Source: Candidatus Hydrothermarchaeales archaeon
Lineage (GTDB): Archaea; Hydrothermarchaeota; Hydrothermarchaeia; Hydrothermarchaeales; JAZGAD01
DNA length: 17,271 bases
Direction of reading: 5' to 3'
Assembly (NCBI GenBank): GCA_036444275.1
Contig: JAZGAD010000030.1
Location: forward strand, 1 to 17,271
Below the pieces are notes generated by a model. It worked only from the letters and a program-made list of their open reading frames with translations. It did no database searches and was not told the origin of the DNA. Shown in pieces: positions 298 to 14,053 of the stretch. Numbering within the stretch: position 1 is the first letter of the stretch; every line of letters begins with the position of its first letter. Made by a program: the position numbers and the translations under genes.

Positions 298-478
298 TTG
301 CCGAAGAGAATAACCAAAAACACGGCCAAGAAAGTAGCGCGATTCACTCTGGAGAAGAAGGCGTTTGACGTTCAGCTCATGGATCTTCGCAAGGTCACAC
401 CGGTGACGGATTTTTTTGTGATCTGTTCCGGTACAACAAATGTGCAGGTCAAGGCGATCGCAGACAACGTGATTGATC
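298..478 (+). CDS. rsfS: Ribosome silencing factor RsfS (Iojap), N-terminal ~60 aa only, broken at the GATC junction
   Basis: TTG start after GGAGA. EKKAFDVQLMDLRKVTPVTDFFVICSGTTNVQVKAIADNV matches the RsfS N-terminus. After ...NVID the ORF runs into antisense of the tubulin-family gene and lacks the RsfS C-terminal EG...W.L.D...VH motifs. Confidence 0.88.
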
Positions 479-1186
479 CTTGCTACCTGGGGCGATCATC
501 ATGTCTATTACTTTTATTATTTCTTGATTTATCGTGTAGTACCGCTCCTCCGTTTCAGCGCCACTTACGCCGACGATCTTTTCCACTTGGTCGTTGTCCA
601 CTAATAGTAAGAGGTCTGCGTTCTGTCTACCGTCGCTGCCGAACTTAAGCAGTCTCGAGATGCCGCATACGACGTTGAAGAATCTCTGGGGCGCCTCAAA
701 GTCATAGGGGAGTATCCCGAGGGACATATAACTGTTCTCGCCAGCAGCCACTATACCCTTGCCGTATTTGAGCTCATGGATTATGTATGGTAAAGAGCCG
801 TTCCCAGTGCCGCCTCCCAGTGTTGTGATACCAAAGAGTACATCTCGCCCACCAAGTTTCAGATTAGTTATATAGCGCCTTATGGTATCGAAATCTTCCC
901 TAGCCTCGTTCTCCCCGACCTTCCAGTTATTTCCGGCTCCAGAGGGAGATTTCCCGAAGATACAGATCTTCTCCCGTCTTATGCGGTCGTAGACCTCGCT
1001 GAAATTTGGATCCTTAGTGAGCATGTACTCAAAGGTCTTCTCAGGCCTCACGTCGGCCGTCGTGGTATTCAACAGCAGCACGCGATCATCTATGGTTGGA
1101 TTATGAAATTTTGCGTAATATAAAAAGGACACTCTATTAGCGCCTTCCCCCGCGGCTATTATGCTCCATCTCGTTCCTTCTTCCAT
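449..1186 (-). CDS. Tubulin/FtsZ-superfamily GTPase (divergent, CetZ/tubulin-like); C-terminal domain missing, genuine sequence ends at ~475
   Basis: Degenerate T1 IIAAGEGANRV, LLLNTT, T3 SGAGNNW, T4 LGGGTGNG, GILPY..E, LLLVDN and YYTINQEI. AGGTGA Shine-Dalgarno before the ATG. Stops just before the expected T7 loop. Confidence 0.88.
   Translation of the reverse strand: MEEGTRWSIIAAGEGANRVSFLYYAKFHNPTIDDRVLLLNTTTADVRPEKTFEYMLTKDPNFSEVYDRIRREKICIFGKSPSGAGNNWKVGENEAREDFDTIRRYITNLKLGGRDVLFGITTLGGGTGNGSLPYIIHELKYGKGIVAAGENSYMSLGILPYDFEAPQRFFNVVCGISRLLKFGSDGRQNADLLLLVDNDQVEKIVGVSGAETEERYYTINQEIIKVIDMMIAPGSKDQSRCLRSP
475..478. other. Probable chimeric junction (GATC) between bacterial and archaeal DNA
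   Basis: rsfS (+) and the tubulin-family gene (-) both lose recognisable family similarity at this GATC. Genes to the left are bacterial and genes to the right are archaeal. Confidence 0.8.
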
Positions 1187-1202: not shown

Positions 1203-2633
1203 TTATTTCCTTCTCCTCAATTTCTCTCTCAATTCAGTGGTAATTATTGATTTCAAAGTGAGAACAGGTGGATTCTCCTTGAACTCTACATCTGAGTGCT
1301 TCGAACTGTAAAAGTGCATGAATTTATCAGCGTACTTGACCTTTAAATCCGGTCCGGCCAGTTTCCCATTTTCCTTTAATCTTTGGGTGATTATAGGCTC
1401 TAGTTTTTTGAAATTCTCTAGCACCTTCATGAACATAACATCCTTACGGTACTGCACAGTCACCCGCTTCAACGCCTTCAAGGAGTCTTTACTGAAGGCA
1501 TCCAACTCCTGAGACGGATCGACCTTATCAACAAGCTCACCAATACCATCATCTCGGTCCCAGAAATCCTTCCCAGGTTCGTGTGGGGTTATCTCGGCTT
1601 CCATATCAGAGAGTTCATGGTTCAGCTCTGCCAGTGTAGCCGCTAGTTTGTTCTTGAATTGAGCATCAAGCTCTTGAAGTTCGTCCATTCTCCCTGGATC
1701 ATTGAGCGAGGAAATTCTGTCCTTCAGCTCCCTTATGGGAAAACTATATTTTGTAGCCTCCCCACCCAGGAACTCGAGGTGTTTCTCCACAGAGGAAAGT
1801 AGCCGAGTGTGTTGCTTTGCAAAGCTGGAGGCCATAATATCTTTTAATTTGTTCCTAGCAGTTATGAACAGGGAAACGCACGCATCCAGATCGTCCATTC
1901 TTTTCATTGCTTTCGTTATATCTTCTTCAGCCTGATTCGTATCCCCGTATTTCTTGGCCGTAGATGCTATGGTCGTGACCTCCTCCACACAGCTTGTCAA
2001 TAAGGAAGTAAAGACTTCATCGGCCCTCCGGTCCTTCTCTACCAGTTCCTCCAAGCTCTTGGCATAGTAGTTTGCGACAGCATCGAAATCCTTTACGCCT
2101 TGCCCTATACTATACCCCGCGCCTTCTAATTCTTGCAGCTTGGAGCCGAGGTTGCGGATGTGTTCATTCAGCTCGGGCTTGTAGCTGCCGGCGGTAAGGG
2201 TTTCTAAACTGAGGAGTTTCTGTTCTGTCTTCCTTGTCTGTTGCTCAATAAAGGTCAAAGTAGACTTATAGACTCCCCTGGTAACCCTCTCGAAGTTTTC
2301 ATCAAAGAGCCTTAACTTAATAAGGCTGCTCCTTATGGCATCTAATTCCCGCTGGATATCCTTGATGTCGATAAGGTTGCTGGATTGAGTGACTAAATCC
2401 TGGGTTTTGTTAAATTCCATCCTGATCTTGCTTAGAGTCTCAACCTTTAGTTTTTCTATTGTCTTGTCAGAGGTTGTCTTCCACCAAGTATAAAGAACGC
2501 TCCCTAGGATAGAGACAGCTATCACTCCTAGGCCAAAATACGCTACTTCTGCTATCCCAAAGTTCACTAACAAAAAAAAACCTACACCAATGGTGGCTGC
2601 TATAACTATTGTAGCGGCGACGTACTCATTCAT
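1203..2633 (-). CDS. Membrane-anchored long coiled-coil protein (two N-terminal TM helices, small C-terminal globular domain)
   Basis: Two hydrophobic N-terminal segments followed by ~370 aa of E/K/L-rich helical sequence. Start moved to ATG 2633 because GAGGTG (SD) lies 6 nt upstream. Ends 16 nt before the tubulin-family gene, so probably the same operon. Confidence 0.85.
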   Translation of the reverse strand: MNEYVAATIVIAATIGVGFFLLVNFGIAEVAYFGLGVIAVSILGSVLYTWWKTTSDKTIEKLKVETLSKIRMEFNKTQDLVTQSSNLIDIKDIQRELDAIRSSLIKLRLFDENFERVTRGVYKSTLTFIEQQTRKTEQKLLSLETLTAGSYKPELNEHIRNLGSKLQELEGAGYSIGQGVKDFDAVANYYAKSLEELVEKDRRADEVFTSLLTSCVEEVTTIASTAKKYGDTNQAEEDITKAMKRMDDLDACVSLFITARNKLKDIMASSFAKQHTRLLSSVEKHLEFLGGEATKYSFPIRELKDRISSLNDPGRMDELQELDAQFKNKLAATLAELNHELSDMEAEITPHEPGKDFWDRDDGIGELVDKVDPSQELDAFSKDSLKALKRVTVQYRKDVMFMKVLENFKKLEPIITQRLKENGKLAGPDLKVKYADKFMHFYSSKHSDVEFKENPPVLTLKSIITTELREKLRRRK

Positions 2634-2742
2634 GAAGTGCACCTCGAGAAACCTTGTCTTACTACAGTAAAGGAAATACCCTGTTTTTGTTAATATCCTT
2701 TTGCAATCTTCTCTGACAACCCATTTGATCTACCACTCGAAC

Positions 2743-2911: not shown

Positions 2912-4141
2912 TTATTCCAGAGTAGCAGCTTCTTCTGCTTCCTCTGCCTCGTACACAGCGAAGTCCTTTTCGTATTCCTCTAGGACCCGTAAAGAAATAT
3001 TCTCGTACTGCCCGGCTAGCTTGCTCAGCGTGTATAGCCTAGACAACTGATTGGGCCTGTATGTTAGGAGTACTGTGGCGCTAGCGAGGTTCCTCTTGGT
3101 GAGAGCGACACCGAAGTGCGTCTCACCCAAACGCGACCTCTCTTCCATCACCCTCTTTGCCATCGACGTGTTCACCTTACCGGCTTTGGTAAGGTATGCA
3201 GGTGGAAGCCGCAGTAGCACGAGGTTCTTTTCGGCTTCTCCAACCCGTATGTCTTCTAGGGATAACTTCATGAAAGCCCGGTAGAGAAGGCTCACCACAT
3301 CTATCTCCTTGTACCCCCTTACCGGGAAGATATAGTGTAAGAAGTCCCTTGTCTTCTCACTAGCCCTGCCTAGGCAGGCAAAGCCCGGGCGCTGCTTATC
3401 CTTAAGAGTGAAAGAGGATGCAGCTATCATGTCCTTAATATCTATTACAGGTGCATAGCCCTCAAACTCAGCTGGGTTCAGCCTCTCCAATGCGGTACCG
3501 ATCACTATGTCCCTCAGGCTCCTAGCTACATATTCATTGTAGCGCTGGAATAGGTTCTCGCTGCTCTCAGAGTATGCCAGCTTCTGGTTGTCCACGAGCA
3601 CGATAGAATCCACATATTCAACGAGAATGTTCAGACTTTCCACAGCGTTCTTAGCGGTTAGACCGCCCTCATGGCTGGCTGGCAAAACTACGATGGCTAT
3701 CACAGGGATTCCCATCTCTTTGAAAACTTTTGCTATTATGGGTCCAGCACCGCTTCCTGTTCCACCTCCAAGACCGAAAGCCACAAAGGCGACGGCTATG
3801 CCCACGCCCTTTTCGTCAGCACCCTTTACTCTGGCCCTTTCCACGATTATGTCCCGTATGCTATCCTCATAGCGCTCAGCATCTTGCGCGGCATTTGCCC
3901 TGTTCTTTCCATAGCCCCCGCTGACGAAGTGTTCGAAACCCGTTATTTTGCCATCGATGAAGCCTCTATCTCTAGTCATGCCTACCCAGTACCGCCTATC
4001 GATGTACTTCAAAGTCTGCAGGTCCATGGTAGCTGAATTCACAAGGATAGGCTCAGCTACCTGGTACATGTTTTTTTCATAGAAAGCGGCATCTACTATC
4101 GCTCCACCGCACTGTCCTACTCCGATGAATGCATATGGCAT
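2912..4141 (-). CDS. Tubulin/FtsZ-superfamily GTPase, CetZ-like, full length
   Basis: T1 FIGVGQCGGAI at the extreme N-terminus (no FtsZ N-terminal extension), LVNSA, GGYGKN, T4 GLGGGTGSG, VVLPASHEG, LVDN, T7-like VIDIKD, LGRASE and an acidic C-terminal tail. Confidence 0.92.
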   Translation of the reverse strand: MPYAFIGVGQCGGAIVDAAFYEKNMYQVAEPILVNSATMDLQTLKYIDRRYWVGMTRDRGFIDGKITGFEHFVSGGYGKNRANAAQDAERYEDSIRDIIVERARVKGADEKGVGIAVAFVAFGLGGGTGSGAGPIIAKVFKEMGIPVIAIVVLPASHEGGLTAKNAVESLNILVEYVDSIVLVDNQKLAYSESSENLFQRYNEYVARSLRDIVIGTALERLNPAEFEGYAPVIDIKDMIAASSFTLKDKQRPGFACLGRASEKTRDFLHYIFPVRGYKEIDVVSLLYRAFMKLSLEDIRVGEAEKNLVLLRLPPAYLTKAGKVNTSMAKRVMEERSRLGETHFGVALTKRNLASATVLLTYRPNQLSRLYTLSKLAGQYENISLRVLEEYEKDFAVYEAEEAEEAATLE

Positions 4142-4163
4142 AGTCTACTCTTAGGGGGTAAAT

Positions 4164-4173
4164 ATTTATAAAT
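4164..4173. promoter_or_regulatory. Palindromic archaeal TATA box (ATTTATAAAT), likely bidirectional promoter for leaderless transcripts
   Basis: TTTATAAA at 4165-4172 sits in the middle of a 53-nt spacer, ~23-24 nt from both divergent ATGs (4141 and 4195). Confidence 0.7.
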
Positions 4174-4194
4174 TTATAGGGTGGAATTAGATGC

Positions 4195-5157
4195 ATGAGT
4201 TCAAGAGTTCTGCTTCTGGCGATGACTTTAATGTTAATTCCTTCGGTTTATGCCCAAAGTTGCGGGGACCTTGTATTAACGGTACGGGGCTTGCAGTCCC
4301 CTGCTTTCGACGAGTACTACCAGCTCAACGACATGAAGCAGGATGCCCTGCTTATCCTCTATGGACGGGAGAGGGCTACTTGTCCCGAAGAGGTTATAGG
4401 TCTCTCATCCTCAACAATAGAGTTCATTGAAGATTTCAGTGTTGCCTACAACCTGAGCCGGTCAGAGGCACGTGTAGATCGCGTCGATGCATTGGAGAAA
4501 TCTGTGAAGCTAGTAGGTTCTGCAGCTGCATTATCCCGGTACACGTTGGGTATAGAGGCTGAGGATCTAATAAATTCGGCGCAGCAGGCCTCTAGGGAGT
4601 TTCTCATTATACAGGGCAAGGCATTTCTAAGCAAGGCAGAGAGTGCTTCGGCAACGAAGGATAAGATCTTTAACTACAAGCAGGCCACCGTAGCATACGA
4701 AGCAGCTGGAGAAACCCTGGAGGCAGCTAACCTGAGGATGAAATGGAAGGCATTGGAAGAGAGCTATTCGAGAGATATGGAGAAAGCCGATGTGCAATTT
4801 GTTGCAGGAGAATCAAAGTATTCCTTAGCAAAACAACTACTATCTCGGGATATTTTTTCTAGAATAGAGGCATATACATTAACCAGGGAAGCGTCGATCC
4901 ACTTCGAGAAAGCAGCGGTTTACTATGAGTATCATCGTGAGCAAGAAAAGATCAGGGATACAGTGGGTGAGATATCTGCTACAGCGAATACGCTGCAGGA
5001 ATTGAGGAATAACATCGGGCTGTATTTCGCTATCTCAGGCATCGCCTTGTTGGGTGTTGCCCTGTTCTTGATAAATCGTTTGAAGGCATGGAATAACGAC
5101 GCATATGACTACAACTTGGGAAATGAACTAGTGCAGGTGAGTACCGGTGAAACATAG
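4195..5157 (+). CDS. Exported alpha-helical single-pass membrane protein (signal peptide, helical ectodomain, C-terminal TM, short tail)
   Basis: Signal peptide MSSRVLLLAMTLMLIPSVYA, TPR/SNAP-like helical patterns (YKQATVAYEAAG), TM GLYFAISGIALLGVALFLI. Confidence 0.85.
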   Translation: MSSRVLLLAMTLMLIPSVYAQSCGDLVLTVRGLQSPAFDEYYQLNDMKQDALLILYGRERATCPEEVIGLSSSTIEFIEDFSVAYNLSRSEARVDRVDALEKSVKLVGSAAALSRYTLGIEAEDLINSAQQASREFLIIQGKAFLSKAESASATKDKIFNYKQATVAYEAAGETLEAANLRMKWKALEESYSRDMEKADVQFVAGESKYSLAKQLLSRDIFSRIEAYTLTREASIHFEKAAVYYEYHREQEKIRDTVGEISATANTLQELRNNIGLYFAISGIALLGVALFLINRLKAWNNDAYDYNLGNELVQVSTGET

Positions 5158-5170
5158 TTCCGGGGGTGAA

Positions 5171-7180
5171 ATGGGGTTCAATCTAGTTAAGTTGGGCGTT
5201 GTCTTACTCCTCGTGTCAACCTTCTTTGGCGAGGCATATGCGATTGTCACGTGGCATGTATCAGGGTGGAATTACGAATTTGACGTTGACTTCAATGAAC
5301 CCAGAGGCACGAAACAATACACGATAGGTAGAACAATTGTGTTTTATAATAGCGATGAGAATTACAGCGTATCTATTCCTAGTCTAGCTGCTACTACAGA
5401 CATAGATGGTTTTACGGTCGAGTTGAGGGCGACATCTATAAATATTGATCCAGAAACGACTAAGAGTGTGGACGCGACCTTCCACGTTGCTCCTAACATG
5501 ACAGAGGGCACTCACAAGGGTAAATTGAGGATAACAGGTGCAAATGTAAGTACCAGTCCGAAGTCGGTTACGGTAGACATAACCTGGCCCAACCCAGCTA
5601 TTACTGCGGTCTGGGATCAAAGGGACTGGGGTAAATTAAAGGCTGGCAGTGCCTTCAAACAGAGATTCATCGTAAACGAGACCATGGGGTACCACCTTGC
5701 TGAGAATGTTAGCCTTAGGATAGGTAATATAGGGTCAGCAGCGTTGAATTATAGCGGTGCTCTTGGGGACATACTTCCATTTGGATCTAAGAGGGTGACA
5801 GTAGATGTAGAGGTGCCTGAGCGGAATCTGGAGCCAGGCACATACTCGGTTACGCCGAGGTTAAGCTCAACTAACATCACTGACATAGACGTGGAAGATG
5901 CCGCCTATGCCATACCCATGCCGGTATTAGAGCTGGACAACCATTCTATGGCTTTCGGTGACATCACCTTTGAAGCTGGGAGAGACGCTTCATTGAATAT
6001 CTTGACCGTGAAGGAGAGCGGGGGTTATACCCCTGTAGAGGACATAAACCTAACCCTTTCATCCGGGGAGGGTGGCTGGATAACCTATACTCAGATCGAT
6101 TATCTACCCCGAAACTCGTCCAAAATTCTCAACTTTATCCTAAGGCTGCCGCCGGAAGCCAGCTTAGGAGATAAGAAATGGGAATTCACTATCGACACCC
6201 TATATGCCGGCTCTCATAAAATCGAGGCAACTACCACTGTGTATTTCCCTGGAATCGAGGATGCATTGATAGACCTGCAAAACGCCACGGTACTAAACGT
6301 CACGGAATCCAAAATCATCCTAGATAACTCCTTGCTCCTGCTTCAAAACTCTAGGGGAGCGACTGAAATCAGGAAGATCGCGATGGTAATGTCAGTATAT
6401 AGTGGTACTCGGTCCATACTGAATCTAATGAAGGAGGCAAAGGATAGCAAAGCCACCGATCTTGATAGAGCAGGTTCTGCGATTATACTAGCTGAAAATG
6501 CCCTCAACAAGATAAAGATCGGAGACGAGAACATAGAGGATGAGAGTCTGAAGCAATACACTACTGCAATTGCGCAAGCAGCCGATTCGCTGTGGAGGTC
6601 TAATGCTGTCGCTATCCTGAGTTTGATAAGTGATAGAGCTGAGGCGAGTAAGGACTCTGATTATAAGACAGCAGCAATATACTACAAGAGGGGAAAGAAG
6701 ATATACTCCCTTCTTGGCGATACAGAGGCAGAGAATGAGTACCTCGCCCTCCAGACGCTAAAGGAGGAGGAGTACCGCGAGTCGCTTACAAGGGCGATAA
6801 AGCTGAAGTCAGAAGGAGCAGGAGAATTAGAAGTTGCAAGGGCGAAGATGTTTGGAATAGGCAACGTATACTTTGTTCTGAATCCTTTTGCCTATGATTT
6901 GGTCTCGCAGAATTATAGGCGTGTCATCGAGAAATATACCGATGCTAGAGAGCTATTCGAGGTCGCTGGCGAACGCGACGATGCAGAACTCCTTTCAAGG
7001 GAGGTAGTAGCGACTGTAAATCAGGAGCAAACGATTCGGATAGGCTTTTTGGTGTATGGACTATTCTGGACTGTCTTATTCGTAGGATTCATTGCGAGAG
7101 TAAGCTTGGGACTGCAGTACTTCAAGCAGGATGAGGAGGATACCTACATCGGCGAAGTGGTGCTGCCAGAAGAAAGATGA
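5171..7180 (+). CDS. Exported single-pass membrane glycoprotein (Ig-like beta domains, helical domain, C-terminal TM, short tail)
   Basis: Start moved to ATG 5171 (GGGGTGA SD). Signal peptide ending AYA, about three beta-sandwich-like segments (EGTHKGKLRITG, PGTYSVT, GDKKWEFTI), about 12 N-x-S/T sequons, TM GFLVYGLFWTVLFVGFIA. Confidence 0.85.
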   Translation: MGFNLVKLGVVLLLVSTFFGEAYAIVTWHVSGWNYEFDVDFNEPRGTKQYTIGRTIVFYNSDENYSVSIPSLAATTDIDGFTVELRATSINIDPETTKSVDATFHVAPNMTEGTHKGKLRITGANVSTSPKSVTVDITWPNPAITAVWDQRDWGKLKAGSAFKQRFIVNETMGYHLAENVSLRIGNIGSAALNYSGALGDILPFGSKRVTVDVEVPERNLEPGTYSVTPRLSSTNITDIDVEDAAYAIPMPVLELDNHSMAFGDITFEAGRDASLNILTVKESGGYTPVEDINLTLSSGEGGWITYTQIDYLPRNSSKILNFILRLPPEASLGDKKWEFTIDTLYAGSHKIEATTTVYFPGIEDALIDLQNATVLNVTESKIILDNSLLLLQNSRGATEIRKIAMVMSVYSGTRSILNLMKEAKDSKATDLDRAGSAIILAENALNKIKIGDENIEDESLKQYTTAIAQAADSLWRSNAVAILSLISDRAEASKDSDYKTAAIYYKRGKKIYSLLGDTEAENEYLALQTLKEEEYRESLTRAIKLKSEGAGELEVARAKMFGIGNVYFVLNPFAYDLVSQNYRRVIEKYTDARELFEVAGERDDAELLSREVVATVNQEQTIRIGFLVYGLFWTVLFVGFIARVSLGLQYFKQDEEDTYIGEVVLPEER

Positions 7181-7221: not shown

Positions 7222-9630
7222 CTAGACTATGGTACGTTTGAGTCTATTTATTATGCTGGGTTTCTCCAGCATCTCCTCCACGTAATTCAAGAGCGCCACT
7301 GCTATCAATATAGAAGCAGCTGTTTTAAATCCCGACTCGCTAGTTGTGCTCTCTAGAAGTCCTTCAGATATCCGCCAGAGACCTGTGACAGGTAGGATGG
7401 TCAGCTCACCCATCTTCTTGGTAATCTTCTCATCAGTATCCCTTAATTTCTTCCGGGCCTGGGAGCGATTATCCCTTGCTGAAAACTCAGGATCCCTAAC
7501 TGCATCCATAAAGGCGTGTGGAAATTCTTCACCTAGTCCGCTAGGTCCGCAATCCTCTGCTTTCAGTCCGATAGAAGCCTTGTATATCTGAACATTCTTC
7601 CAATCGGTTATTACAGAGGATATGCTATCACCGATGCTGCCTAAGATGTCGATAAAGTCCTGGGTTATTCCTTCGTAGTTCTCTGTCTTGGAGGCGAAAT
7701 ACTCTGGATTAGTGGGTAGCTTTTCAGCGAAAGCTATAAAGTTCTCAGCGATGCCCCCGTAATAGTTAGGAAGGCACATATCAAAGGAGGAAACCTCTCC
7801 AATGCTTTTATCCAGCGAGCTCCTTATAGATTCAAGTATATTTTCCTGCATAGCACTCAATTTAAGGACGGACTCTAGCTGGACCGTTATATGATCTTCT
7901 TCCCCAGTAGAAGTGTAGGGGGTCCTTTGCACGTCATATAACTCTTTCTCCACCATGAGGGTATACTCACCTATCGCAGGCACGAATACAGCTTCGCCGT
8001 CAGAATTGGTTCTCTTCTCCACATGGTCAATGATTACCTTGGCGTTGGGCACTGCAAACCCCGCTTGATTCACCACTTTTACCCGGAATTCCTTTACCGC
8101 TACCTCCATAGCTTTCGCTTCTTCAAGCGCCTTCTCTCGGAGCCGCAATCTTGTCCTCACTACTAGAACACCGATTACAACAGCTAAGCCTATGACGGCA
8201 AGGTAGGCATACACCGGATTTCGCTTTGATGGTTGCTCAAGAGGTGGAAGAGCTCTAGAGTTATCGTAAAAGAGGAGCTTCCTGCCTTGAGAATAAGATA
8301 GATAATCCCCGCTGGACGCAATGGCCACGGAGATGATTCCCATATCCGGACGCCGCCATACCTCCTCCCCTTCCTTGAATAGATATAAGCTGGAGTTAGT
8401 AGAAGTGAAGATGTATTCCCCCTGTAGACTCATGGAGACACTGGAAACCACATCTAGAGTAGGATAAGTAGAGAGAATGCTTTTATTTTCGATGTTCAAG
8501 ATGTAGATTTTGTTGCCTGCGCCTGCTGCTATTCGTCCGTTTGATAGTGAGATGCTGGTTATTGTTCTTGGTGTTGTGTAAGTCCAGAGTGTGGTTTTGT
8601 TTTCTAGTACGTAGATTTTGTTGCCTGCGCCTGCTGCTATTCGTCCGTTTGATAGTGAGATGCTGGTTATTGTTTCATTCATCGTATATTCTGCGATAAT
8701 ACCTCCATTCCTCCCGATTATGTAGACTAAGCTTCCACTGCTGTAAGCTATAGCGCTTCCATCCCCCGCGATATCAATGGAGCTAATAGGCGCCTTTTCC
8801 TCCCTCATCCAGAGAAACTTAGGTGGGGCTATCTCGGATTTATTTAATAGGTAGACTACTATCTCATCCATACCACTATTATTCGCCAAATCAGTTGCTA
8901 TGACTTCCACCTTGTAGGGTCCCTCGGTAAGGTTTAAGGTGTCCCAGGAATATGGAAAGTTCAAGACTTCTTTACCCGCTATCCTAAGGGAAACATTGGC
9001 GAGGGGATCTCCAACCGAGGCGTCTATCAAGATTATCTCCCCAAGCGTAGCCTCCACTACACCGCTTATAGAGGTAACCTCAGGGCTCGTGATCTCTACC
9101 GAAGGCGGTATAGTGTCGTTACTGGACACCTCTCCAACCTCTATGGAGCCGTCAGCAAATAGGATATGGCATTCTTTATCGCAGTATGTGCATGCACCAG
9201 AAGCATCGAAATCACGGGCTGCTGTATCTTGGTTAAACAAGAAGATTAGTCTAAAGTTATAGACACCAGGCTCTGCAGGGGTTCTGACAGAGATAGTAGA
9301 TTCAACGCTGCCTCCGACTCCTTTCACTCCAGAAAACAGCATTCCTATCTCAGTATTGGGGGCCCAACTTCCAAAGGCATTAACCTGTACTAGGCAATCA
9401 GGGCAGGGTGCATTCCAGTCCCATTTCACTTCCACGGGTATCCTCTGGAAGGAATCAACCCTTATGCTCTCTTGGATGCCATCTGAGGCGGAATCCATGT
9501 CGAGGTATCCAAAGGTCAGAGGCCCAACCTCATATCCCGGGGTTAGCTGGTGGGTATATGTAGGGCAAGAAGCCGAAACCATCGGCATCAGAGATAGGAG
9601 CAAGATTGCAGTGAAAAGTCTCCGCAACAT
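7222..9630 (-). CDS. Large single-pass membrane protein: Cys-containing and Ig-like domains, beta-propeller repeats, TM, then carboxypeptidase-regulatory-like beta domain and helical C-terminal domain
   Basis: Start moved to ATG 9630 (signal peptide MLRRLFTAILLLSLMPMVSA) because the longer ORF overlaps a tRNA. Big-like PPSVEITSP...WDT...EGPYKVEVIATD, WD/PQQ-like blades, TM VYAYLAVIGLAVVIGVLVV, then VPNAKV...TNSDGEA...GEYTLMVEK. Confidence 0.85.
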   Translation of the reverse strand: MLRRLFTAILLLSLMPMVSASCPTYTHQLTPGYEVGPLTFGYLDMDSASDGIQESIRVDSFQRIPVEVKWDWNAPCPDCLVQVNAFGSWAPNTEIGMLFSGVKGVGGSVESTISVRTPAEPGVYNFRLIFLFNQDTAARDFDASGACTYCDKECHILFADGSIEVGEVSSNDTIPPSVEITSPEVTSISGVVEATLGEIILIDASVGDPLANVSLRIAGKEVLNFPYSWDTLNLTEGPYKVEVIATDLANNSGMDEIVVYLLNKSEIAPPKFLWMREEKAPISSIDIAGDGSAIAYSSGSLVYIIGRNGGIIAEYTMNETITSISLSNGRIAAGAGNKIYVLENKTTLWTYTTPRTITSISLSNGRIAAGAGNKIYILNIENKSILSTYPTLDVVSSVSMSLQGEYIFTSTNSSLYLFKEGEEVWRRPDMGIISVAIASSGDYLSYSQGRKLLFYDNSRALPPLEQPSKRNPVYAYLAVIGLAVVIGVLVVRTRLRLREKALEEAKAMEVAVKEFRVKVVNQAGFAVPNAKVIIDHVEKRTNSDGEAVFVPAIGEYTLMVEKELYDVQRTPYTSTGEEDHITVQLESVLKLSAMQENILESIRSSLDKSIGEVSSFDMCLPNYYGGIAENFIAFAEKLPTNPEYFASKTENYEGITQDFIDILGSIGDSISSVITDWKNVQIYKASIGLKAEDCGPSGLGEEFPHAFMDAVRDPEFSARDNRSQARKKLRDTDEKITKKMGELTILPVTGLWRISEGLLESTTSESGFKTAASILIAVALLNYVEEMLEKPSIINRLKRTIV
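8503..8674. repeat. Exact 64-bp direct repeat (8503-8566 and 8611-8674, period 108 bp) encoding duplicated propeller blade TITSISLSNGRIAAGAGNKIY
   Basis: Both copies were compared base by base and are identical. Confidence 0.95.
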
Positions 9631-9654
9631 GCAACTAACTTCTGGAACTTTGAA

Positions 9655-9668
9655 TAAAAAGCTTTTTA
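9655..9668 (-). promoter_or_regulatory. BRE/TATA-like element (palindrome TAAAAAGCTTTTTA) upstream of the 9630 start; its T-run could also terminate the tRNA transcript
   Basis: Minus strand reads AAAAAGCTTTTTATT ~25-35 nt before the ATG and just downstream of tRNA-Gln(UUG). Confidence 0.5.
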
Positions 9669-9674
9669 ATGGAA

Positions 9675-9747
9675 TAGCCCGGAGCGGATTCGAACCGCTG
9701 TCGCGGGCTCCAAAGGCCCGCATGATTGACCGCTACACTACCGGGCT
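9675..9747 (-). tRNA. tRNA-Gln (UUG)
   Basis: 73-nt cloverleaf: acceptor AGCCCGG/CCGGGCT (A1-U72, archaeal Gln type), anticodon arm CGGGC-CTTTGGA-GCCCG, T-loop GGTTCGAATCC. No intron and no CCA directly after the discriminator. Confidence 0.97.
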
Positions 9748-9840: not shown

Positions 9841-9900
9841 AATTAGTTGGTGCCGCTAGGAAAGATTTATCATCCATTTGGAAATAAACCTTTGGGTAAC

Positions 9901-10737
9901 ATGTTCCAGTACGTCAGGATTCTTAGGCCCCTTAACTGTGCAATGGCGGGGATAGCAGTAATAGTTGGGGCAGTTGTAGCCTCAGATGTATTTCCTGTAA
10001 TGAAGATAGCCTTGGCTTTCTGGGCAACTTTTATGATATGTGGAGCTGGAAACGTGGTAAATGACTTCTTTGACTATGAGATTGACAAGATCAATAATCC
10101 CCTACGTCCTCTTCCTTCGGGAGCAATACCCCTAAACCTAGCCCTCTACTATGCCTTATCACTATTCGTGCTTGGAGTGCTAGCATCAGCTTTCATAAAC
10201 ATATACGCCCTTGTCATTGCTCTTTTTAATTCCCTTTTGCTCTACGTCTATGCCCAGCGGATAAAGAAGGGAGGCGGAATAAAGAAGAACCTAACCGTCA
10301 GCTACCTCGTAGCATCGCCTTTCTTTTTCGGGGGAATAGCGGTAATGGTTGTGGGAAAACCGCTTGTAACCCTCCTTCTAGCCCTTATCGCTGCCTTTGC
10401 GAATACTGGTAGGGAGATAGCCAAGGATATTGAGGACTACAAAGGAGATTCAATGTTTATCAAGACACTGCCTGCTAGAGTAGGATTTGAGAAGGCTTCT
10501 AGACTCGCTGGAGCATTCCTCTTTGCCACGGTAGTCCTAAGTCCACTTCCCTACTTCTTTGGGATTCTAAATTGGTATTATCTTCTCATTGTATTAGCAG
10601 CAGATGTTGTTGTCGCGTATGCAGCTATGATTTTGTTGAGAAATAGCAGTGACCCAGTAAAGGCAAGTGAGAGTCAGAGGATGATCAAAATCGGGATGTT
10701 GCTAGCATTAGCGGCCTTCTTTGTGGGTAGTCTTTAA
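9901..10737 (+). CDS. Digeranylgeranylglyceryl phosphate (DGGGP) synthase, UbiA prenyltransferase family
   Basis: ILRPLNC, GNVVNDFFDYEIDKINNPLRPLPSG, REIAKDIEDYKGD, KTLP and multiple TMs. ATG 9901 preferred over TTG 9847. Confidence 0.9.
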   Translation: MFQYVRILRPLNCAMAGIAVIVGAVVASDVFPVMKIALAFWATFMICGAGNVVNDFFDYEIDKINNPLRPLPSGAIPLNLALYYALSLFVLGVLASAFINIYALVIALFNSLLLYVYAQRIKKGGGIKKNLTVSYLVASPFFFGGIAVMVVGKPLVTLLLALIAAFANTGREIAKDIEDYKGDSMFIKTLPARVGFEKASRLAGAFLFATVVLSPLPYFFGILNWYYLLIVLAADVVVAYAAMILLRNSSDPVKASESQRMIKIGMLLALAAFFVGSL

Positions 10738-10783
10738 CTATTCTGCTATTGCTCTACTCAATTAGCAGTTTATCAGCTATATA

Positions 10784-11521
10784 CTATCCTAAATCCTTTA
10801 TTCTCCCAAGGGCCGTGCCATCCAACAAGTATGCCTCAGCATTTGCCATGTCTACTAAACCCTTGTTAAAGAGCGGACCCAGTAGTCTTCTCTCACAATT
10901 AAAAGGAGTACCGGGAAGCATATCATTGAAGGCAGGCGCTATTACCACCTTTGGAGACGTATTCAATCCAAATAGCTCCATTCCTCTCTCATTCAGCTCA
11001 GCCCTTATCCACGCACTCTCTCTTACAGCGTAGCCAAATTCGTCCCTGAAGTCTATGCATGGATGATTGTGGCCCAGTACTATGTATTCATAGTCAGCAG
11101 AAGGGATATTCATATGTCCATGGGTTAGCAATGCTCCATTAATCTCTAGGCTCTTAACGATCTCAGTTTTTGGTAGGAGCCGTTCTATGCCGCCATCATG
11201 ATTTCCCTTTACAATTATCACTTCGCTGTGCTCTGATAACCCCGCTACAAATCCTGGTATCCCTGAGTACTCACGCCACGACATCGCTGGGATATTGTGC
11301 TTCAAGTCCCCTACGATAATAAGGCTCGCGGCGCTAGATATTTCCAAGAGATGTACCAGCCTTTCCCGCATCTTCTCCCATTGAGGCCTAATGATGATCC
11401 CTTTTTTACGAAGCTCGTGCTCAAAGCCTAGGTGGAGATCCGCTACTACAAGGTAATTCCCTACAATCAACGCCCTTTCGCTATGGATAGGTTCCACCGC
11501 AAGTTTTACAAGGTCGGCCAT
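10784..11521 (-). CDS. Calcineurin-like metallophosphoesterase (archaeal ICC-like family)
   Basis: Motifs ADLHLG, GDLKH, GNHD, HGH, GHNHP and PAFN. Likely start is ATG 11521. Confidence 0.9.
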   Translation of the reverse strand: MADLVKLAVEPIHSERALIVGNYLVVADLHLGFEHELRKKGIIIRPQWEKMRERLVHLLEISSAASLIIVGDLKHNIPAMSWREYSGIPGFVAGLSEHSEVIIVKGNHDGGIERLLPKTEIVKSLEINGALLTHGHMNIPSADYEYIVLGHNHPCIDFRDEFGYAVRESAWIRAELNERGMELFGLNTSPKVVIAPAFNDMLPGTPFNCERRLLGPLFNKGLVDMANAEAYLLDGTALGRIKDLG

Positions 11522-11620
11522 GTTCGCTCCGCTATTGGAATTATATTGTTTGATTGATATCACTTCCACTAATGTAAAAACATTAATATTGGGAAATATA
11601 ATTTAAATGGAGGTGATAGT

Positions 11621-11902
11621 TTGCTGGAAGCCAAAACTGAGATAAGACTGGTCGGCCATGTATTGGAGAGGGGTATAATCTTCAAGCTTTCGGAAGCAAT
11701 AAAAGACGTAGATGTAGAAGTCATGCACTGCGAGGTTTCTTTTGCAGCCCTCAAAGCAGGGATAGAGGAAAAGATGCCTTCCTTCATGCGCTTCTACCTA
11801 GTGGGGGCTAAGGAGGAACGGGATAAAGCAGTGGAAGCTGTGAAAAAACTTGCTGAGGAGACTGCGTGTAAAATAGATTATATTCGGGAGAGGCGTGACT
11901 GA
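11621..11902 (+). CDS. Small hypothetical protein, possible ACT/ferredoxin-like fold
   Basis: Perfect GGAGGTGA SD before TTG, alternating beta/alpha pattern (IRLVGHVLERGII), and TGATG overlap with the next gene. Confidence 0.7.
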   Translation: MLEAKTEIRLVGHVLERGIIFKLSEAIKDVDVEVMHCEVSFAALKAGIEEKMPSFMRFYLVGAKEERDKAVEAVKKLAEETACKIDYIRERRD

Positions 11903-12714
11903 TGAAAGCCCAGGTCACCTTAACCGTAGCTGAGTCGAAGAGGTTGATAGGAAAGGCGGTGAAGGAGCACCCATGGGTGAAGAAAGCCTTGAAAAGTGGG
12001 ATAATAGCTATAGGCACTGGTTCCACCAATGCATATGTGGTAGAAGAAATTCTAGGCATAGAAATCGAGAAGAAGAGGCACATAGCTGGATTCATAGACG
12101 AAGAAGGCGCATGCATCGTTCCGAGGGATGAGAGAAGCAAGAGCATAGTCCTAGATAATGGTAGGCGGGTAGACGAATCTCTAGAGGCTGTTGCCAAGAG
12201 AATGGGCAGGGACGACGTATTTATCAAAGGTGCAAATGCATTGGATTTCGACGGTATAGCCGGGGTAATGATGGCAAGCCTTACAGGCGGCACTGTTGGC
12301 GATGTTATCGGAACGCTAAAGGCAAGGGGGATAAAGCTCCTTATACCTGTGGGCCTCGAAAAGCTGATTTGCCACTCGGTAGCTGAAGCTTCCAATATCG
12401 CTGGTATCTATGAGATGGATTATTCTGACGGTGTACCCGTGGGCATAATGCCTATCTCAGGGGAAGTGATAACCGAGATAGAGGCTTTTATGATTCTCTC
12501 GGATGTAGATGCCGTTAACATTGGCGCAGGAGGGATCGGAAGCGGAGAGGGGTCTAAGACCTTCATACTACACGGGAAAGAGGGCAAGGTATCGAAGGCT
12601 CTAAGAATCCTAGAATCCATACGAGGTGAGGAGAATATAGAGCCCTTAAGAGGCAAGTGTAAGGATTGTGTATACCTATACTGCCCGCGCAATAAAAGCA
12701 AAAAAGATAAATAA
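11902..12714 (+). CDS. Conserved hypothetical protein, probable RpiA/CoA-transferase-like fold with C-terminal Cys motif
   Basis: LTVAESKRLIGKAV N-terminus, IAIGTGST, FIKGANALD, PVGLEK and C-terminal CKDCVYLYC. Confidence 0.7.
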   Translation: MKAQVTLTVAESKRLIGKAVKEHPWVKKALKSGIIAIGTGSTNAYVVEEILGIEIEKKRHIAGFIDEEGACIVPRDERSKSIVLDNGRRVDESLEAVAKRMGRDDVFIKGANALDFDGIAGVMMASLTGGTVGDVIGTLKARGIKLLIPVGLEKLICHSVAEASNIAGIYEMDYSDGVPVGIMPISGEVITEIEAFMILSDVDAVNIGAGGIGSGEGSKTFILHGKEGKVSKALRILESIRGEENIEPLRGKCKDCVYLYCPRNKSKKDK

Positions 12715-12734
12715 GCCGCTTTTGAGGTAATACC

Positions 12735-13322
12735 ATGGATGTCCTGCAGGAGTCGATGCTGAGCATTGCGGATCACGTTAAAAAGATAACTAATTCCTTA
12801 GATGAGGTGCCAGTGAATGAGATGATCAACTTGATTCAGAAGGCGCAAAAGGTTTTTGTGTACGGCTCTGGTAGGAGCGGGCTAGTGGGTAAGGCGTTTG
12901 CCATCCGCCTTATGCACCTGGGAATAAACGTATTTGTCATTGGCGATGTGATAAACCCTGCTATAGTAAAGGAGGATGTGTTGATAGTCATCTCGGGTTC
13001 TGGGGAGACCGATACCCCTGTTAATGCCGCCAAGATAGCGAAGGGTGCAGGCGCCAAGATCGTAGCTATAACCACCTATCCAAGCTCTACAATAGCTAAG
13101 ATCGCTGACACCATAGTAGTCATTAAGGGCAGGACCAAGTTGAAGGGTGAGACGGACTTCCTACTGCGGCAGATCAAGGGAGAGCATTATTCGCTTGCAC
13201 CTTTGGGGACCTTGTTCGAGGTATCGGTGCTCATCTTCCTTGATGGCCTGATTGTAGAGATGATGACTCGAATGGGTAAGAGCGAAGATGACATGCGGGT
13301 ACGTCATGCCACGATAGAATAG
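12735..13322 (+). CDS. hxlB: 6-phospho-3-hexuloisomerase (SIS domain, RuMP pathway)
   Basis: VFVYGSGRSGLVGKAFAIRLMHLG, ISGSGET, APLGTLFE and C-terminal RHATIE. GAGGT SD. Confidence 0.93.
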   Translation: MDVLQESMLSIADHVKKITNSLDEVPVNEMINLIQKAQKVFVYGSGRSGLVGKAFAIRLMHLGINVFVIGDVINPAIVKEDVLIVISGSGETDTPVNAAKIAKGAGAKIVAITTYPSSTIAKIADTIVVIKGRTKLKGETDFLLRQIKGEHYSLAPLGTLFEVSVLIFLDGLIVEMMTRMGKSEDDMRVRHATIE

Positions 13323-13331
13323 AGGGATGTC

Positions 13332-13586
13332 ATGGGCGAGGTTAAGGTTAAATTTTTTGCGAGTTTCAGAGAGAGTCTTGGAAGAGAAGAGTTGATCATA
13401 GGCTTAGAAGGCAAGAAGACATTAGATGAGATCATAGATGCCATTGAGGAAACAGCCCAAGGGTTGAGGGCGCTTTTGAAAGTCGGAAACGCTGTAATCG
13501 CAGTAAACCACGAGGTAGCAAGAGGTGACACACAGATTAAGGCAGGGGACGAGATAGCAATATTCCCCCCGGTGTCAGGGGGCTAA
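13332..13586 (+). CDS. moaD: MoaD/ThiS/SAMP-family ubiquitin-like sulfur carrier
   Basis: VKVKFFASFRE, AVN and GDEIAIFPPVSGG with C-terminal diglycine. Adjacent to moaE. Confidence 0.92.
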   Translation: MGEVKVKFFASFRESLGREELIIGLEGKKTLDEIIDAIEETAQGLRALLKVGNAVIAVNHEVARGDTQIKAGDEIAIFPPVSGG

Positions 13587-13611
13587 TCTAAGTTGGACGA
13601 GGATATAACAT

Positions 13612-14034: not shown

Positions 14035-14053
14035 AAAAGAAGGGAATATCTCC

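Follow-up and report, generated by a model that had tools for sequence, protein, structure and literature searches.

Two paralogous single-pass membrane proteins that share a tail motif and co-occur with a pair of tubulin-like GTPases in Hydrothermarchaeota

The locus

The window considered here, a whole stretch of 17,271 nucleotides from a Hydrothermarchaeota archaeon (contig JAZGAD010000030.1), contains a set of six genes: S, L, tubA, tubB, CC and P833. The S gene (P0001, 320 aa) lies at 4195..5157 on the forward strand, its TAG stop codon at 5155-5157, and encodes a type I membrane protein, as judged by translation, hydropathy and an AF2 model. The signal peptide covers about residues 1-21 (..VYA/QS), the TM segment about residues 274-294, and a tail of 26 aa follows. 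Both S and L have an N-terminal hydrophobic segment with an A-x-A-type site and a TM segment followed by R/K. The ectodomain of S is all-helical (the model, with a pLDDT of 90.0, has eight helices), and all 21 homologues keep C23 and C63. The protein matches no family in Pfam or NCBIfam. Its model finds nothing better than E 0.13 when compared by Foldseek with the PDB, a wide VIA-align search returned only generic three-helix bundles, MIT-like proteins and designed proteins (Z at most 13.4, the noise range for helical models), and the ESM Atlas offers only a cluster of its own kind, with 147 members called 'hypothetical protein'.

The L gene (P0002, 677 aa; 5147..7180, forward strand) encodes a second type I membrane protein, by the same kinds of evidence. 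The open reading frame begins with GTG at 5147, overlapping S, but a likelier start is the ATG at 5171, which is preceded by GGGGGTGA and leaves 13 nt between the two genes. Following the signal peptide are three beta-sandwich domains, a helical module, a TM segment (about residues 632-650) and a tail. The AF2 model has a pLDDT of 88.0, and the sequence contains 12 N-x-S/T sequons and no cysteine at all. There is no Pfam or NCBIfam match to L itself, and NCBI names its homologues 'COG1361 family protein'.

Upstream of S, and divergent from it, is tubA (2912..4141, reverse strand), encoding a 409-aa GTPase of the tubulin/FtsZ superfamily (Pfam Tubulin, 2.1e-25) with the motifs GGGTGSG and T7-like IDIKD. 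The 53 bp between the two genes (4142..4194) contain a core, AAATATTTATAAATTTATA, that is rich in A and T, resembles a TATA box and lies about 25 nt from either start codon, and on the strength of that sequence the region is a candidate divergent promoter. Beyond tubA, on the same strand, is CC (1203..2642), recognized by translation, hydropathy and synteny, whose 479-aa product has an N-terminal membrane segment, a long helical or coiled-coil remainder and no Pfam or NCBIfam family. CC separates tubA from tubB, a divergent tubulin-like GTPase with GGGTGNG (Pfam Tubulin, 4.3e-8), of which the window holds the 5' part (476..1186, reverse strand; residues 1-237 of about 446). An assembly break cuts the gene, tblastn homology stopping at nt 479, and residues 166-446 are found on G000:C2:7745-8587. 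On the other side of L is P833 (7222..9630, reverse strand), whose open reading frame reaches 9723 but whose likely start is M32, at 9630. This type I membrane protein of 833 aa has a signal peptide, beta-propeller-like repeats in its ectodomain, a TM segment at residues 504-522 and, inside the cell, some 310 aa that include a CarboxypepD_reg-like domain (Pfam, below cut-off).

The CetZ tubulin-like proteins of Euryarchaeota have a part in how Haloferax volcanii cells are shaped and how they move. Among solved chains, the set compared, tubA is closest to 4b46_A (E 6.1e-17), which I take to be Haloferax CetZ (the structure record names FtsZ), and it shares the GGGTGSG motif. tubB is more remote, at E 2e-7 or worse from solved FtsZ and CetZ structures. 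CetZ has been reported in Hydrothermarchaeota (PMC9871819). Unlike CetZ, however, tubA and tubB form a tightly co-occurring pair of their own, and the pili, cofactor and epimerase genes described in canonical cetZ neighbourhoods (in the part of PMC9856176 available) are unlike the genes found here. Closer in pattern are the 'Halo.Tub'/CetZ-like groups of Halobacterota (Santana-Molina et al. 2023, PMC9871819), in which quasi-tandem tubulin-like genes are surrounded by unknown coiled-coil genes. The tubA-CC-tubB arrangement shows the same pattern, a comparison made by description and not by sequence, but an exported pair like S and L is not mentioned in the available portion of that article.

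S and L are ancient paralogues

Compared directly by BLASTP, S and L are scarcely alike (E 0.48, 24% identity over 164 columns with 28% gaps), yet the alignment falls into the register that the earlier note had found by hand in calling the two exported proteins hidden paralogues. Comparison of profiles, one from 21 S homologues and the other from 19 L homologues, leaves little to doubt: residues 40-314 of S match residues 384-674 of L over 270 columns with a probability of 98.2% and E 3e-14 (98.22% and 3.6e-14 in a second hhalign run). It confirms that S and L are ancient paralogues. All four blocks on which the note relied are in register, namely YKQATVAYEAAGET/YKRGKKIYSLLGDT, LEESYSRDMEKA/KEEEYRESLTRA, EISATAN/EVVATVN and the two tails, and the positions and sequences it gave for the tails (S from nt 5080, L from nt 7112) are correct. 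It had looked to the C-terminal 160 aa or so, with a helical stalk and the tail. The last 160 aa do align by hhalign (E 1.1e-11), but the similarity does not end there; it takes in the whole of mature S.

Parts of the proteins also match by themselves: the ectodomain alone gives E 7.6e-10, the TM segment and tail alone E 3.3e-5, and the helical domain, when cut to its N-terminal half, E 2.5e-5. The negative controls are clean: E 0.12 when the L family is reversed, 0.13-0.84 in ten column shuffles, 0.049 and 0.099 with the CC family, 0.42 with tubA, and 0.0011 (signal peptide only) and 0.051 with P833, so that by profile comparison neither P833 nor CC has any hidden similarity to the module shared by S and L. 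When 37 S and L sequences are simply aligned with MAFFT, the register is the same as with hhalign, and Y191, A198, A240, E249, D302 and G309 (S numbering) are invariant. In two independent AF2 models the helices of S 42-319 pair one to one with those of L 386-671, in the same order and with the same lengths. 

The paralogous part of L (residues 384-674; 6296..7168, forward strand) thus amounts to eight helices, the TM segment and the tail included. What L has in addition are the three Ig-like beta-sandwich domains, seen in the secondary structure of the AF2 model at residues 34-365 (5246..6241, forward strand). When S is compared by hhalign with residues 1-383 of L, only the signal peptide matches (E 0.003), leaving the Ig-like domains with no counterpart in S, and distant homologues of L match Ig-like Pfam families. 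That these domains belong only to L, as was said earlier, therefore stands.

One merged S/L profile finds both size classes in distant lineages, with representatives that include a 'Methanosarcinales archaeon' and a 'Candidatus Micrarchaeota archaeon'. When 134 of the 150 representatives are placed in a tree (15 with less than 75% coverage and one TPR protein were left out), 51 short proteins form a clade with no others in it (support 0.974), and 69 long proteins form another together with 13 short-looking ones (support 0.988). The helical module has no Pfam TPR match, and its best Foldseek E-value is 0.13. It is very improbable that two TPR-like helical single-pass proteins of similar composition merely converged: such a history would suit the BLASTP result, the repeat-like A-x3-Y-x2-AG motifs of the helical module, the TPR protein (P0140) among the profile matches and the generic helical bundles returned by structure searches, but not 270 columns at E 3e-14 where reversed, shuffled and unrelated-family controls give 0.0011 or worse, nor an ectodomain still significant when stripped of TM segment and tail, helices that match one to one, and a single profile able to retrieve both size classes across distant lineages. 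I found no published account of the paralogy or of the tail motif in a literature where subscription journals were thinly covered.

The cytoplasmic tails

The tail of S, LKAWNNDAYDYNLGNELV, starts at residue 296 (nt 5080) and that of L, LQYFKQDEEDTYIGEVVL, at residue 656 (nt 7112), four residues further from the end of the TM segment. Within the S tail is the motif W299-x2-D302-x2-D305-x2-L308-G309-N-E-L312 (5089..5130, forward strand), and within the L tail F659-x2-D662-x6-G669-E-V-V (7121..7162, forward strand), both defined by invariance in homologues. W299, D302, L308, G309, E311 and L312 do not vary in 21 S homologues. They constitute 6 of the 20 invariant columns of S, all within 14 residues, making this the most invariant stretch of the protein. 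In 19 L homologues the invariant residues are R651, D662 and G669, and the aromatic position is F, Y or W in every one of the 18 L proteins in the merged alignment, whose rows were read by eye.

The earlier note expected the tail to be conserved in homologues and named D-x-x-D-x-x-h-G as the pattern. The first D and the G have held up, being invariant across all 37 S and L sequences, but the second D and the hydrophobic residue (h) have done so only in part. Among the 150 best representatives of the wider family, the aligned columns contain the aromatic residue in 144, D in 134 and G in 132, as against a second acid (D or E) in 111 and L, I, V or M before the G in 94, and neither of these last two is conserved in the hydrothermarchaeal L family. 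The core that remains, aromatic-x2-D-x6-G, occurs in 126 of the 150 representatives and in 35 of 1076 background windows.

Three observations about the tails count against the tubulin-based reading proposed below: the offset of four residues in L, the 24 of 150 representatives that lack the strict motif, and the substitutions in Halobacterium salinarum, where D replaces G in the S tail and E replaces D in the L tail.

Conservation and distribution of the gene set

S lies directly upstream of L in the window, in 19 of 20 loci from relatives (the two are split by contig ends in the remaining one), in H. salinarum and in Halobaculum. tubA is adjacent to S and divergent from it in 16 of the 20 loci, lies elsewhere in the genome in 3 and is lost to a contig end in 1. 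CC is syntenic in 16 of the 20, and P833 adjoins L in 13. The six genes are the only conserved neighbours in these 20 hydrothermarchaeal loci; a search for related loci with a smaller S alignment found 16, all of them hydrothermarchaeal. tubA is the most conserved gene of the set, with 58-87% identity in 16 relatives; tubB has 56-83%, while S (27-50%), L (28-47%) and CC (26-53%) have diverged further.

The earlier note had looked to co-occurrence with tubulin-family genes, and this is very strongly borne out. In 401 genomes, the S/L profile is found in 24 and an orthologue of tubB (E at or below 1e-30) in 25, with 24 genomes sharing the two and 376 having neither, counts that overstate the number of independent events because kin are not independent. 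The one genome with tubB but not S/L is 62% complete. S/L was not found in any of 6 genomes from a family belonging to the same order. S and L co-occur with tubA, tubB, CC and P833 genome by genome even where the genes are scattered, as in G384, a genome from outside the class, where S, L, tubA (50% identity), tubB (54%) and CC are on five different contigs. Such co-occurrence suggests that something at the cell surface is linked to an internal skeleton.

I propose that the paralogues S and L are the arm by which a tubulin-based membrane module, conserved as a set of six genes, spans the membrane, and would put the probability of this at roughly 0.55.

Haloarchaeal counterparts and a possible role in sorting

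A collinear six-gene set is found on haloarchaeal plasmids, in Halobaculum roseum and on plasmid PHS2 of H. salinarum R1, a harmless model organism open to genetic manipulation. By hmmsearch against the haloarchaeal set, E-values are 4e-78 for tubA, 1e-83 for tubB, 2e-28 for CC, 4e-16 for a P833-like protein, 2e-14 for S and 1.5e-45 for L. The profile of 21 hydrothermarchaeal S proteins picks out a 329-aa protein on PHS2 (E 2e-14) and one of 333 aa in Halobaculum (E 7e-15). In H. salinarum R1 the profiles identify WP_012289791 as L-type and WP_012289792 as S-type. Makarova et al. (mBio 2024;15(3):e00335-24, PMC10936438, supplementary file 9) list these two proteins in the ESCRT-like 'Halo_adaptin' neighbourhood of Halobacteria, the S-type as arCOG12846, 'uncharacterized protein, membrane anchored', a group to which S of the window belongs by homology to WP_012289792 and by its position directly 5' of L. 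That study ties a CetZ-like protein to the neighbourhood; the portion of it at hand gives one tubulin-like gene, arCOG02202 FtsZ3, in its table row for H. walsbyi, and mentions neither a pair of tubulin-like genes nor the paralogy of the S and L types nor the tail motif.

The likeness to the published neighbourhood is considerable. The six PHS2 proteins are homologous to the six of the window and stand in the same relative order, and its CetZ-like GTPase and its Ig-like and beta-propeller membrane proteins are present in the window as tubA, tubB, L and P833. In H. salinarum R1, S and L also adjoin genes for winged-helix proteins (arCOG11740/11741), for an ESCRT-III-like protein and for an AAA ATPase of Vps4-like type, and the Ig-like and PQQ-like proteins of the haloarchaeal relatives have been read as the components that bind cargo in a vesicle or sorting system (PMC10936438, PMC11188069). 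S and L might then be membrane components of such an ESCRT-like system, with Ig-like domains binding cargo, tails recruiting the sorting machinery and the tubulin-like protein helping to remodel the membrane. The listing of both proteins in that neighbourhood and the company they keep in haloarchaea speak for this reading, but I consider it unlikely. Only the six genes are conserved at the 20 hydrothermarchaeal loci, the Vps4-like, ESCRT-III-like and winged-helix neighbours are not, and the genes conserved there include no AAA gene, let alone a Vps4-like ATPase whose N-domain is of the VAT_N type. The haloarchaeal ATPase as query finds only generic AAA proteins (about 33% identity over the AAA domain), equally well whether the module is present (5 genomes) or not (5 genomes). 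Queries of the arCOG11740 type and with the ESCRT-III-like protein have no match in 5 module-bearing genomes, four of them hydrothermarchaeal; these were single-protein searches with divergent queries, so the absence is weak negative evidence and an empty answer by itself shows nothing. For the ESCRT-III-like protein the authors themselves give an HHpred probability of 33 (PMC10936438). Finally, the predicted topology puts the Ig-like ('adaptin-like') domains of L outside the cell.

ESCRT-like genes were not found beside the set, nor by the queries used, in Hydrothermarchaeota, hence the tubulin/membrane core may be the older unit. The proposal that S and L are the membrane arm of a tubulin-based module refines the published Halo_adaptin reading in this respect: the hydrothermarchaeal form would be a tubulin/membrane core in which no ESCRT-like genes have been found. 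Cargo sorting, as published for the haloarchaeal relatives (PMC10936438, PMC11188069), is a different function from linking the envelope to a cytoskeleton, and this counts against the proposal.

How S and L might reach the tubulin-like proteins

If S and L are the arm of a tubulin-based module, they may act together. The earlier note took them for a heteromeric pair, and the prediction of a complex goes part of the way: the score is 0.42 (runs of 0.32, 0.42 and 0.47), where the best of 3 controls is 0.00, contacts agree between runs to at least 83%, and partner pLDDT is at least 81, but the verdict is 'weak support' for a heterodimer. In calibration, 116 of 157 solved complexes got as far as the mark, as did 2 of 215 mismatches, and values of 0.60 or lower comprise only 18 of the 157 solved complexes plus both of the passing mismatches. 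The closeness of the two genes, which overlap or are separated by 13 nt, also fits a pair. Contact between the two proteins would be made by the helical modules and the TM helices, with the Ig-like end pointing outwards, which would place the twin tails on the cytoplasmic face as candidate short docking peptides. There they may hold the S/L complex to a tubA/tubB polymer, either directly or by way of CC or the cytoplasmic domain of P833, the other cytoplasmic candidates for a tail partner in the module. The assembly of filaments could thereby be tied to where surface proteins sit or how they move, or to the shaping of the membrane.

As the earlier note had it, the tails would dock a cytoplasmic partner such as the adjacent GTPase. 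The tail is the most invariant part of S and tubA and tubB are highly conserved, as would fit a tail in contact with a highly conserved partner. Both tails (26-27 residues) are acidic and so are the last residues of tubA, thus a simple charge-based contact at that end is not favoured. The invariance of D and G in both paralogues points to a specific contact. Here, then, is a candidate link across the membrane: a related single-pass pair with a 14-residue tail motif, travelling with one pair of tubulins across distant Euryarchaeota. Archaeal tubulin-like proteins other than FtsZ have few known partners.

It is possible that S and L are ordinary envelope glycoproteins of the S-layer type, that the tail is a structural or sorting element, and that the tubulins merely position the growth of the envelope, never touching the tail. 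An L protein with Ig-like domains, many sequons and a C-terminal TM anchor, whose homologues carry the name 'COG1361 family protein', is what might be expected on those grounds. I think this improbable, however. Proteins found in only 24 of 401 genomes, and in none of the 6 genomes of a family in the same order, are oddly rare for the main protein of a wall, and their distribution matches that of tubB perfectly save for one incomplete genome. The invariant D and G common to both tails also speak against it. PGF-CTERM proteins have a PGF motif before a C-terminal TM helix and then a short basic tail. No PGF precedes the TM segment of S or of L, whose sequences were read directly, and so they lack the signature of an archaeosortase substrate.

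Comparison with known systems

In layout, a membrane arm of S and L attached to tubulins would resemble integrins: both have a pair of related type I subunits that cross the membrane once, with a large ectodomain on one side and a short conserved tail on the other, and a proposed reach to the cytoskeleton. The resemblance goes no further. Integrins have homologous alpha (beta-propeller) and beta (beta-I domain) ectodomains, whereas S and L have no Pfam match, no structural match above noise and no NPxY-type tail motif, and the partner proposed for them is tubulin-like and not linked to actin.

The membrane tethers of FtsZ (FtsA, ZipA, SepF) and the wall synthases guided by FtsZ provide a second parallel, in that a membrane-held polymer of the tubulin family organizes proteins that act outside. 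In those tethers the docking peptide comes from the tubulin-family protein and the folded domain from the tether. Here, by contrast, it is the membrane proteins S and L that carry the short conserved peptide, and neither shows homology to FtsZ tethers in Pfam or NCBIfam.

A bolder view can be entertained, though I regard it as doubtful: the six-gene set may be a self-contained machine for coupling across the membrane, in which the tails of S and L grip a two-subunit tubA/tubB polymer whose growth or treadmilling would move surface proteins or push them. If so, it could drive surface motility, membrane protrusion or the budding of vesicles without any ESCRT part, and the haloarchaeal ESCRT-like genes would be a later addition.

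The location of the set on plasmids in haloarchaea, together with its patchy distribution, suggests an accessory rather than a core function. The tubA of PHS2 may correspond to the 'cetZ5 VNG6260G' of strain NRC-1 mentioned in PMC7439475, but a megablast of the PHS2 cluster against PLSDB gives PHS2 itself as the sole match and does not establish such a link.

Two exported proteins of common origin

The small exported membrane protein, S, is encoded at 4195-5157 on the forward strand (320 aa; TAG stop at 5155-5157), and the large one, L, on the same strand in the open reading frame at 5147-7180 (677 aa). That frame contains an ATG at 5171 and, since GGGGGTGA lies just ahead of it, this is most likely the start of L, 13 nt past the end of S. 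Each protein has an N-terminal hydrophobic segment with a site of the A-x-A type and, at the C-terminal end, a single further hydrophobic segment, after which come R/K and a tail 26-27 residues long. So arranged, both would be type I membrane proteins with their bulk outside the cell. L carries 12 N-x-S/T sequons, and two cysteines of S are invariant in its 21 homologues. Neither protein matches any family in Pfam or NCBIfam.

An earlier note aligned S and L by hand and took them for hidden paralogues. On pairwise evidence alone this could be chance: BLASTP recovers the same register, at an E value of 0.48. It is the family profiles (built from 20 related genomes, with 21 homologues of S and 19 of L) that settle the matter. 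Compared by hhalign, they match S 40-314 to L 384-674 over 270 columns with a probability of 98.2% and an E value of 3e-14 (98.22% and 3.6e-14 in a second run), and the four blocks paired by hand all fall opposite one another. The match is found with the ectodomains only (7.6e-10), with the C-terminal 160 aa (1.1e-11), the comparison that the note had proposed, and with the membrane segment plus tail only (3.3e-5). S against L 1-383 gives a match limited to the signal peptide (0.003). As for controls, the reversed L family gives 0.12, ten column shuffles give 0.13-0.84, and S or L against the families of three neighboring genes (CC, P833, and tubA, described below) gives 0.0011-0.42, the best of these again a signal-peptide match. 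A MAFFT alignment of 37 S and L sequences has the same register as hhalign, with Y191, A198, A240, E249, D302, and G309 (S numbering) invariant in both families.

Independent AF2 models of S (pLDDT 90.0, pTM 0.75) and L (pLDDT 88.0, pTM 0.53) have eight helices apiece, in identical order and of similar lengths: 42-56, 65-88, 93-115, 120-150, 154-170, 174-214, 220-246, and 250-319 in S; 386-401, 408-434, 439-462, 466-501, 506-523, 526-566, 580-607, and 610-671 in L. What L has in addition is three modeled beta-sandwich domains at residues 34-365, in agreement with the claim that only the larger protein has Ig-like domains. Given the profile matches, the clean controls, and the matching helices, the paralogy is real, but the C-terminal ~160 residues were too short a span for it: it extends over the entire mature S.

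A conserved tail and an old duplication

In hydrothermarchaea, the tail reads W-x2-D-x2-[DE]-x2-L-G-[NA]-E-L in the S family and R-[VIT]-x-x-[GA]-x3-[FYW]-x2-D-x6-G-[EDVA] in the L family. A profile from the merged S and L alignment, searched against 1.84 billion representatives, has 216 protein matches at E<=1e-3, of which 131 reach E<=1e-10. They come in two size classes, ~300-360 aa and ~640-1130 aa, and among the matches listed, the shared part (helices, membrane segment, and tail) lies at or near the C-terminal end. The best 150 of the 216 were searched for a strict pattern, aromatic-x2-[DE]-x6-G within the last 60 residues. It is present in 126 of the 150 (62/78 below 450 aa and 64/72 at 450 aa or more), against a background of 35/1076 in other 60-residue windows of the same proteins. 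In the tail columns aligned by HMM, the same 150 have the aromatic residue in 144, D in 134 (plus E in 6), and G in 132. The fuller pattern first put forward included a second acid and a hydrophobic residue ahead of G; the core aromatic-x2-D-x6-G is strongly conserved in these best 150 matches, but the second acid (D/E, 111/150) and the hydrophobic residue (L/I/V/M, 94/150) are only partly so.

A tree was made of 134 of these 150 proteins, leaving out 15 with less than 75% coverage and one TPR protein. In it, 51 short proteins form a clade with no long ones (support 0.974), and a second clade unites 69 long proteins with 13 short-looking ones (support 0.988). Several of the 13 are clear fragments, and those tails inspected by eye are of the L type. 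Hence the duplication giving S and L is older than the spread of the family. Close relatives carrying it belong to Hydrothermarchaeota (Candidatus Hydrothermarchaeum profundi JdFR-18 and Candidatus Pyrohabitans are examples), and the distant members are haloarchaeal (Halorussus, Natrinema, Natronolimnobius) and named 'COG1361 family protein' or hypothetical. One further cluster is labelled Methanosarcinales and one Micrarchaeota.

A module with two tubulins

I put at about 0.9 the probability that S and L are paralogous parts of a tubulin-linked module. Three genes of this module lie upstream of S on the opposite strand: tubA (409 aa; Pfam Tubulin, 2.1e-25), CC, a coiled-coil protein of 479 aa that begins with a membrane segment and is helical over its long remaining part, and tubB, which is again tubulin-like but divergent. 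The GGGTG[SN]G signature is retained in both tubulins, as is an I-D-x-x-D stretch, which I take to be at the expected position of the T7 loop. Between the divergent start codons of tubA and S is an AT-rich spacer of 53 bp (4142-4194) with an AT-rich near-palindrome, AAATATTTATAAATTTATA, ~25 nt from either start codon. It could be a bidirectional archaeal promoter shared by leaderless or short-leader transcripts. Downstream of L, and convergent with it on the reverse strand, is P833, an 833-aa protein (frame 7222-9723, likely start 9630) with a signal peptide, a repeat-rich ectodomain, a membrane segment at 504-522, and a predicted cytoplasmic part of ~310 aa.

The tubB frame in the window (449-1186) amounts to only 245 aa. 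Homology to full-length relatives ends abruptly at nt 479, and nt 1-478 are unrelated to tubB. Residues 166-446 turn up on a different contig of this genome, at its end (C2:7745-8587), with an overlap of ~70 residues, so the truncation looks like an assembly join or break and not like a pseudogene.

Among 20 related loci, S and L are adjacent in 19, the remaining one being divided by contig ends. tubA is divergent from S and adjoins it in 16, is elsewhere in the genome in 3, and in 1 meets a contig end; P833 adjoins L in 13. No other neighboring family is conserved in these loci, the remaining 'families' being shadow ORFs within module genes.

The earlier note had suggested that S and L be tested for co-occurrence with tubulin-family genes, and the two go together. 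Amongst 401 genomes (37 of the same class and 364 other archaea), the S/L profile is found in 24 at E<=1e-5 and a tubB orthologue in 25 at E<=1e-30, with 24 having both and 376 neither, counts that are descriptive and carry no statistical test because kin are not independent. The sole genome with tubB only is 62% complete. Of the 41 closest genomes, 23 have a tubA orthologue at E<=1e-60 and one more has a fragment. Even inside the order whole groups lack both S/L and tubB, for example one family (0/6) and one genus (0/3). In G384, a genome from another class, S, L, tubA (50% identity), tubB (54%), and CC are spread over five different contigs (C29, C47, C78, C45, C44; loci L087, L088, L093, L098, L102), and no other searched gene comes closer than 9 kb to its S or L gene. 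The module is dispersed here, and the set thus persists without clustering.

Plasmids bearing the L type turn up in a tblastn search of PLSDB: PHS2 of Halobacterium salinarum R1 and those of three Halobaculum species and one Natrinema. The module is collinear on PHS2 and the Halobaculum roseum plasmid. The order there is tubA (hmmsearch E 4e-78), two small membrane proteins, CC (2e-28), tubB (1e-83), a P833-like gene (4e-16), S (2e-14), and L (1.5e-45), with a PQQ-type beta-propeller protein, a classic AAA ATPase (Pfam AAA, 2.1e-30), and three further proteins encoded on the other strand. The two small membrane proteins of PHS2 (83 and 352 aa, at 1501-2807, between tubA and CC) have no counterparts in the window's cluster. 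That the module is carried on plasmids and is patchily distributed speaks for an accessory role.

Relation to a published neighborhood

Makarova et al. (mBio 2024, PMC10936438; preprint PMC11188069) describe an ESCRT-like neighborhood of Halobacteria, 'Halo_adaptin', comprising a Vps4-like ATPase, a weakly PspA-like protein (HHpred probability 33), winged-helix proteins, a pair of 'adaptin-like' proteins, two further Ig-like ones, a membrane protein, and a CetZ-like one (PMC10936438). The PHS2 proteins matched by the S/L profiles appear in its supplementary file 9, the S type (WP_012289792) as arCOG12846, 'uncharacterized protein, membrane anchored'. Gene order is the same at the locus of Haloquadratum walsbyi, where an Ig-like protein is assigned to arCOG04500 and 'FtsZ3' to arCOG02202 (PMC10936438). 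Santana-Molina et al. (PMC9871819) report CetZ in Hydrothermarchaeota and 'Halo.Tub' genes quasi-tandem amid coiled-coil genes, an arrangement that, by its description, is like tubA-CC-tubB.

The present system is thus a variant of one already published. However, conserved neighbors of ATPase, ESCRT-III-like, or winged-helix type are absent from the 20 hydrothermarchaeal loci. The haloarchaeal ATPase as query gives only generic AAA-domain matches, no better in five module-bearing than in five module-less genomes, and single divergent queries of arCOG11740 type and ESCRT-III-like type find no match in five module-bearing ones, which is weak evidence against their presence. For these reasons the core is, in my view, formed by the six genes (S, L, tubA, tubB, CC, P833), with which the ESCRT-like genes are associated in haloarchaea. 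What is new is that S and L are paralogues, that their tails share a motif, that a second tubulin is a constant partner, and that the core occurs without ESCRT-like genes. The text passages and supplementary tables consulted of PMC10936438, PMC11188069, and PMC9871819 do not state the paralogy, the motif, or the ESCRT-less form, and literature searches found nothing further on them.

What the tails might do

The observation in the earlier note is thus confirmed and extended; its interpretation, a heteromeric receptor-like pair with tails docking a cytoplasmic partner, is borne out in part. S and L probably do heterodimerize, to go by the predicted complex: it scores 0.42 (runs 0.32, 0.42, 0.47) against 0.00 for the best of three controls, with contacts agreeing between runs by at least 83% and partner pLDDT of at least 81. 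Scores passing at 0.60 or below are rated weak, and the verdict on the pair was 'weak support'. The adjacency of S and L is nearly constant (19 of 20 loci), and their co-occurrence with the tubulin pair is broken only by that one incomplete genome.

On the cytoplasmic side, the two related tails would serve as docking peptides. No stretch of S is more invariant than its tail, which holds 6 of the 20 invariant columns within 14 residues, and the tubulins are by far the best conserved of the module's proteins (tubA 58-87% identity, tubB 56-83%, other module proteins 26-53%), which fits a contact between the two. That two paralogous tails would face two paralogous tubulins is suggestive. The chances seem about even that the tails bind some protein of the module; that they bind a tubulin directly I consider rather doubtful, with CC or the cytoplasmic part of P833 equally available as partner. 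The module might link proteins of the surface to a system of filaments, so as to position or move them or to assemble the envelope. Alternatively it may shape membranes or form vesicles, the role put forward for its haloarchaeal relatives. A direct test of the system is feasible in Halobacterium salinarum R1.

Other features

The rest of the window (9847-17271) has ordinary housekeeping genes, for UbiA prenyltransferase, a metallophosphoesterase, a SIS-domain protein, MoaE, an arginase-family protein, and ThiI; among relatives, not one of these is conserved as a neighbor of the module. Three consecutive tubulin-superfamily matches occur on one contig of a related genome (G003:C221:7359-10979, locus L055; 33%, 40%, and 28% identity to tubA), a cluster separate from the module. 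The ectodomain of P833 has an internal near-exact repeat, with ITSISLSNGRIAAGAGNKIY occurring twice, and a CarboxypepD_reg-like domain is found on the predicted cytoplasmic side of its membrane segment; the haloarchaeal counterpart is annotated 'carboxypeptidase regulatory-like domain-containing protein'.
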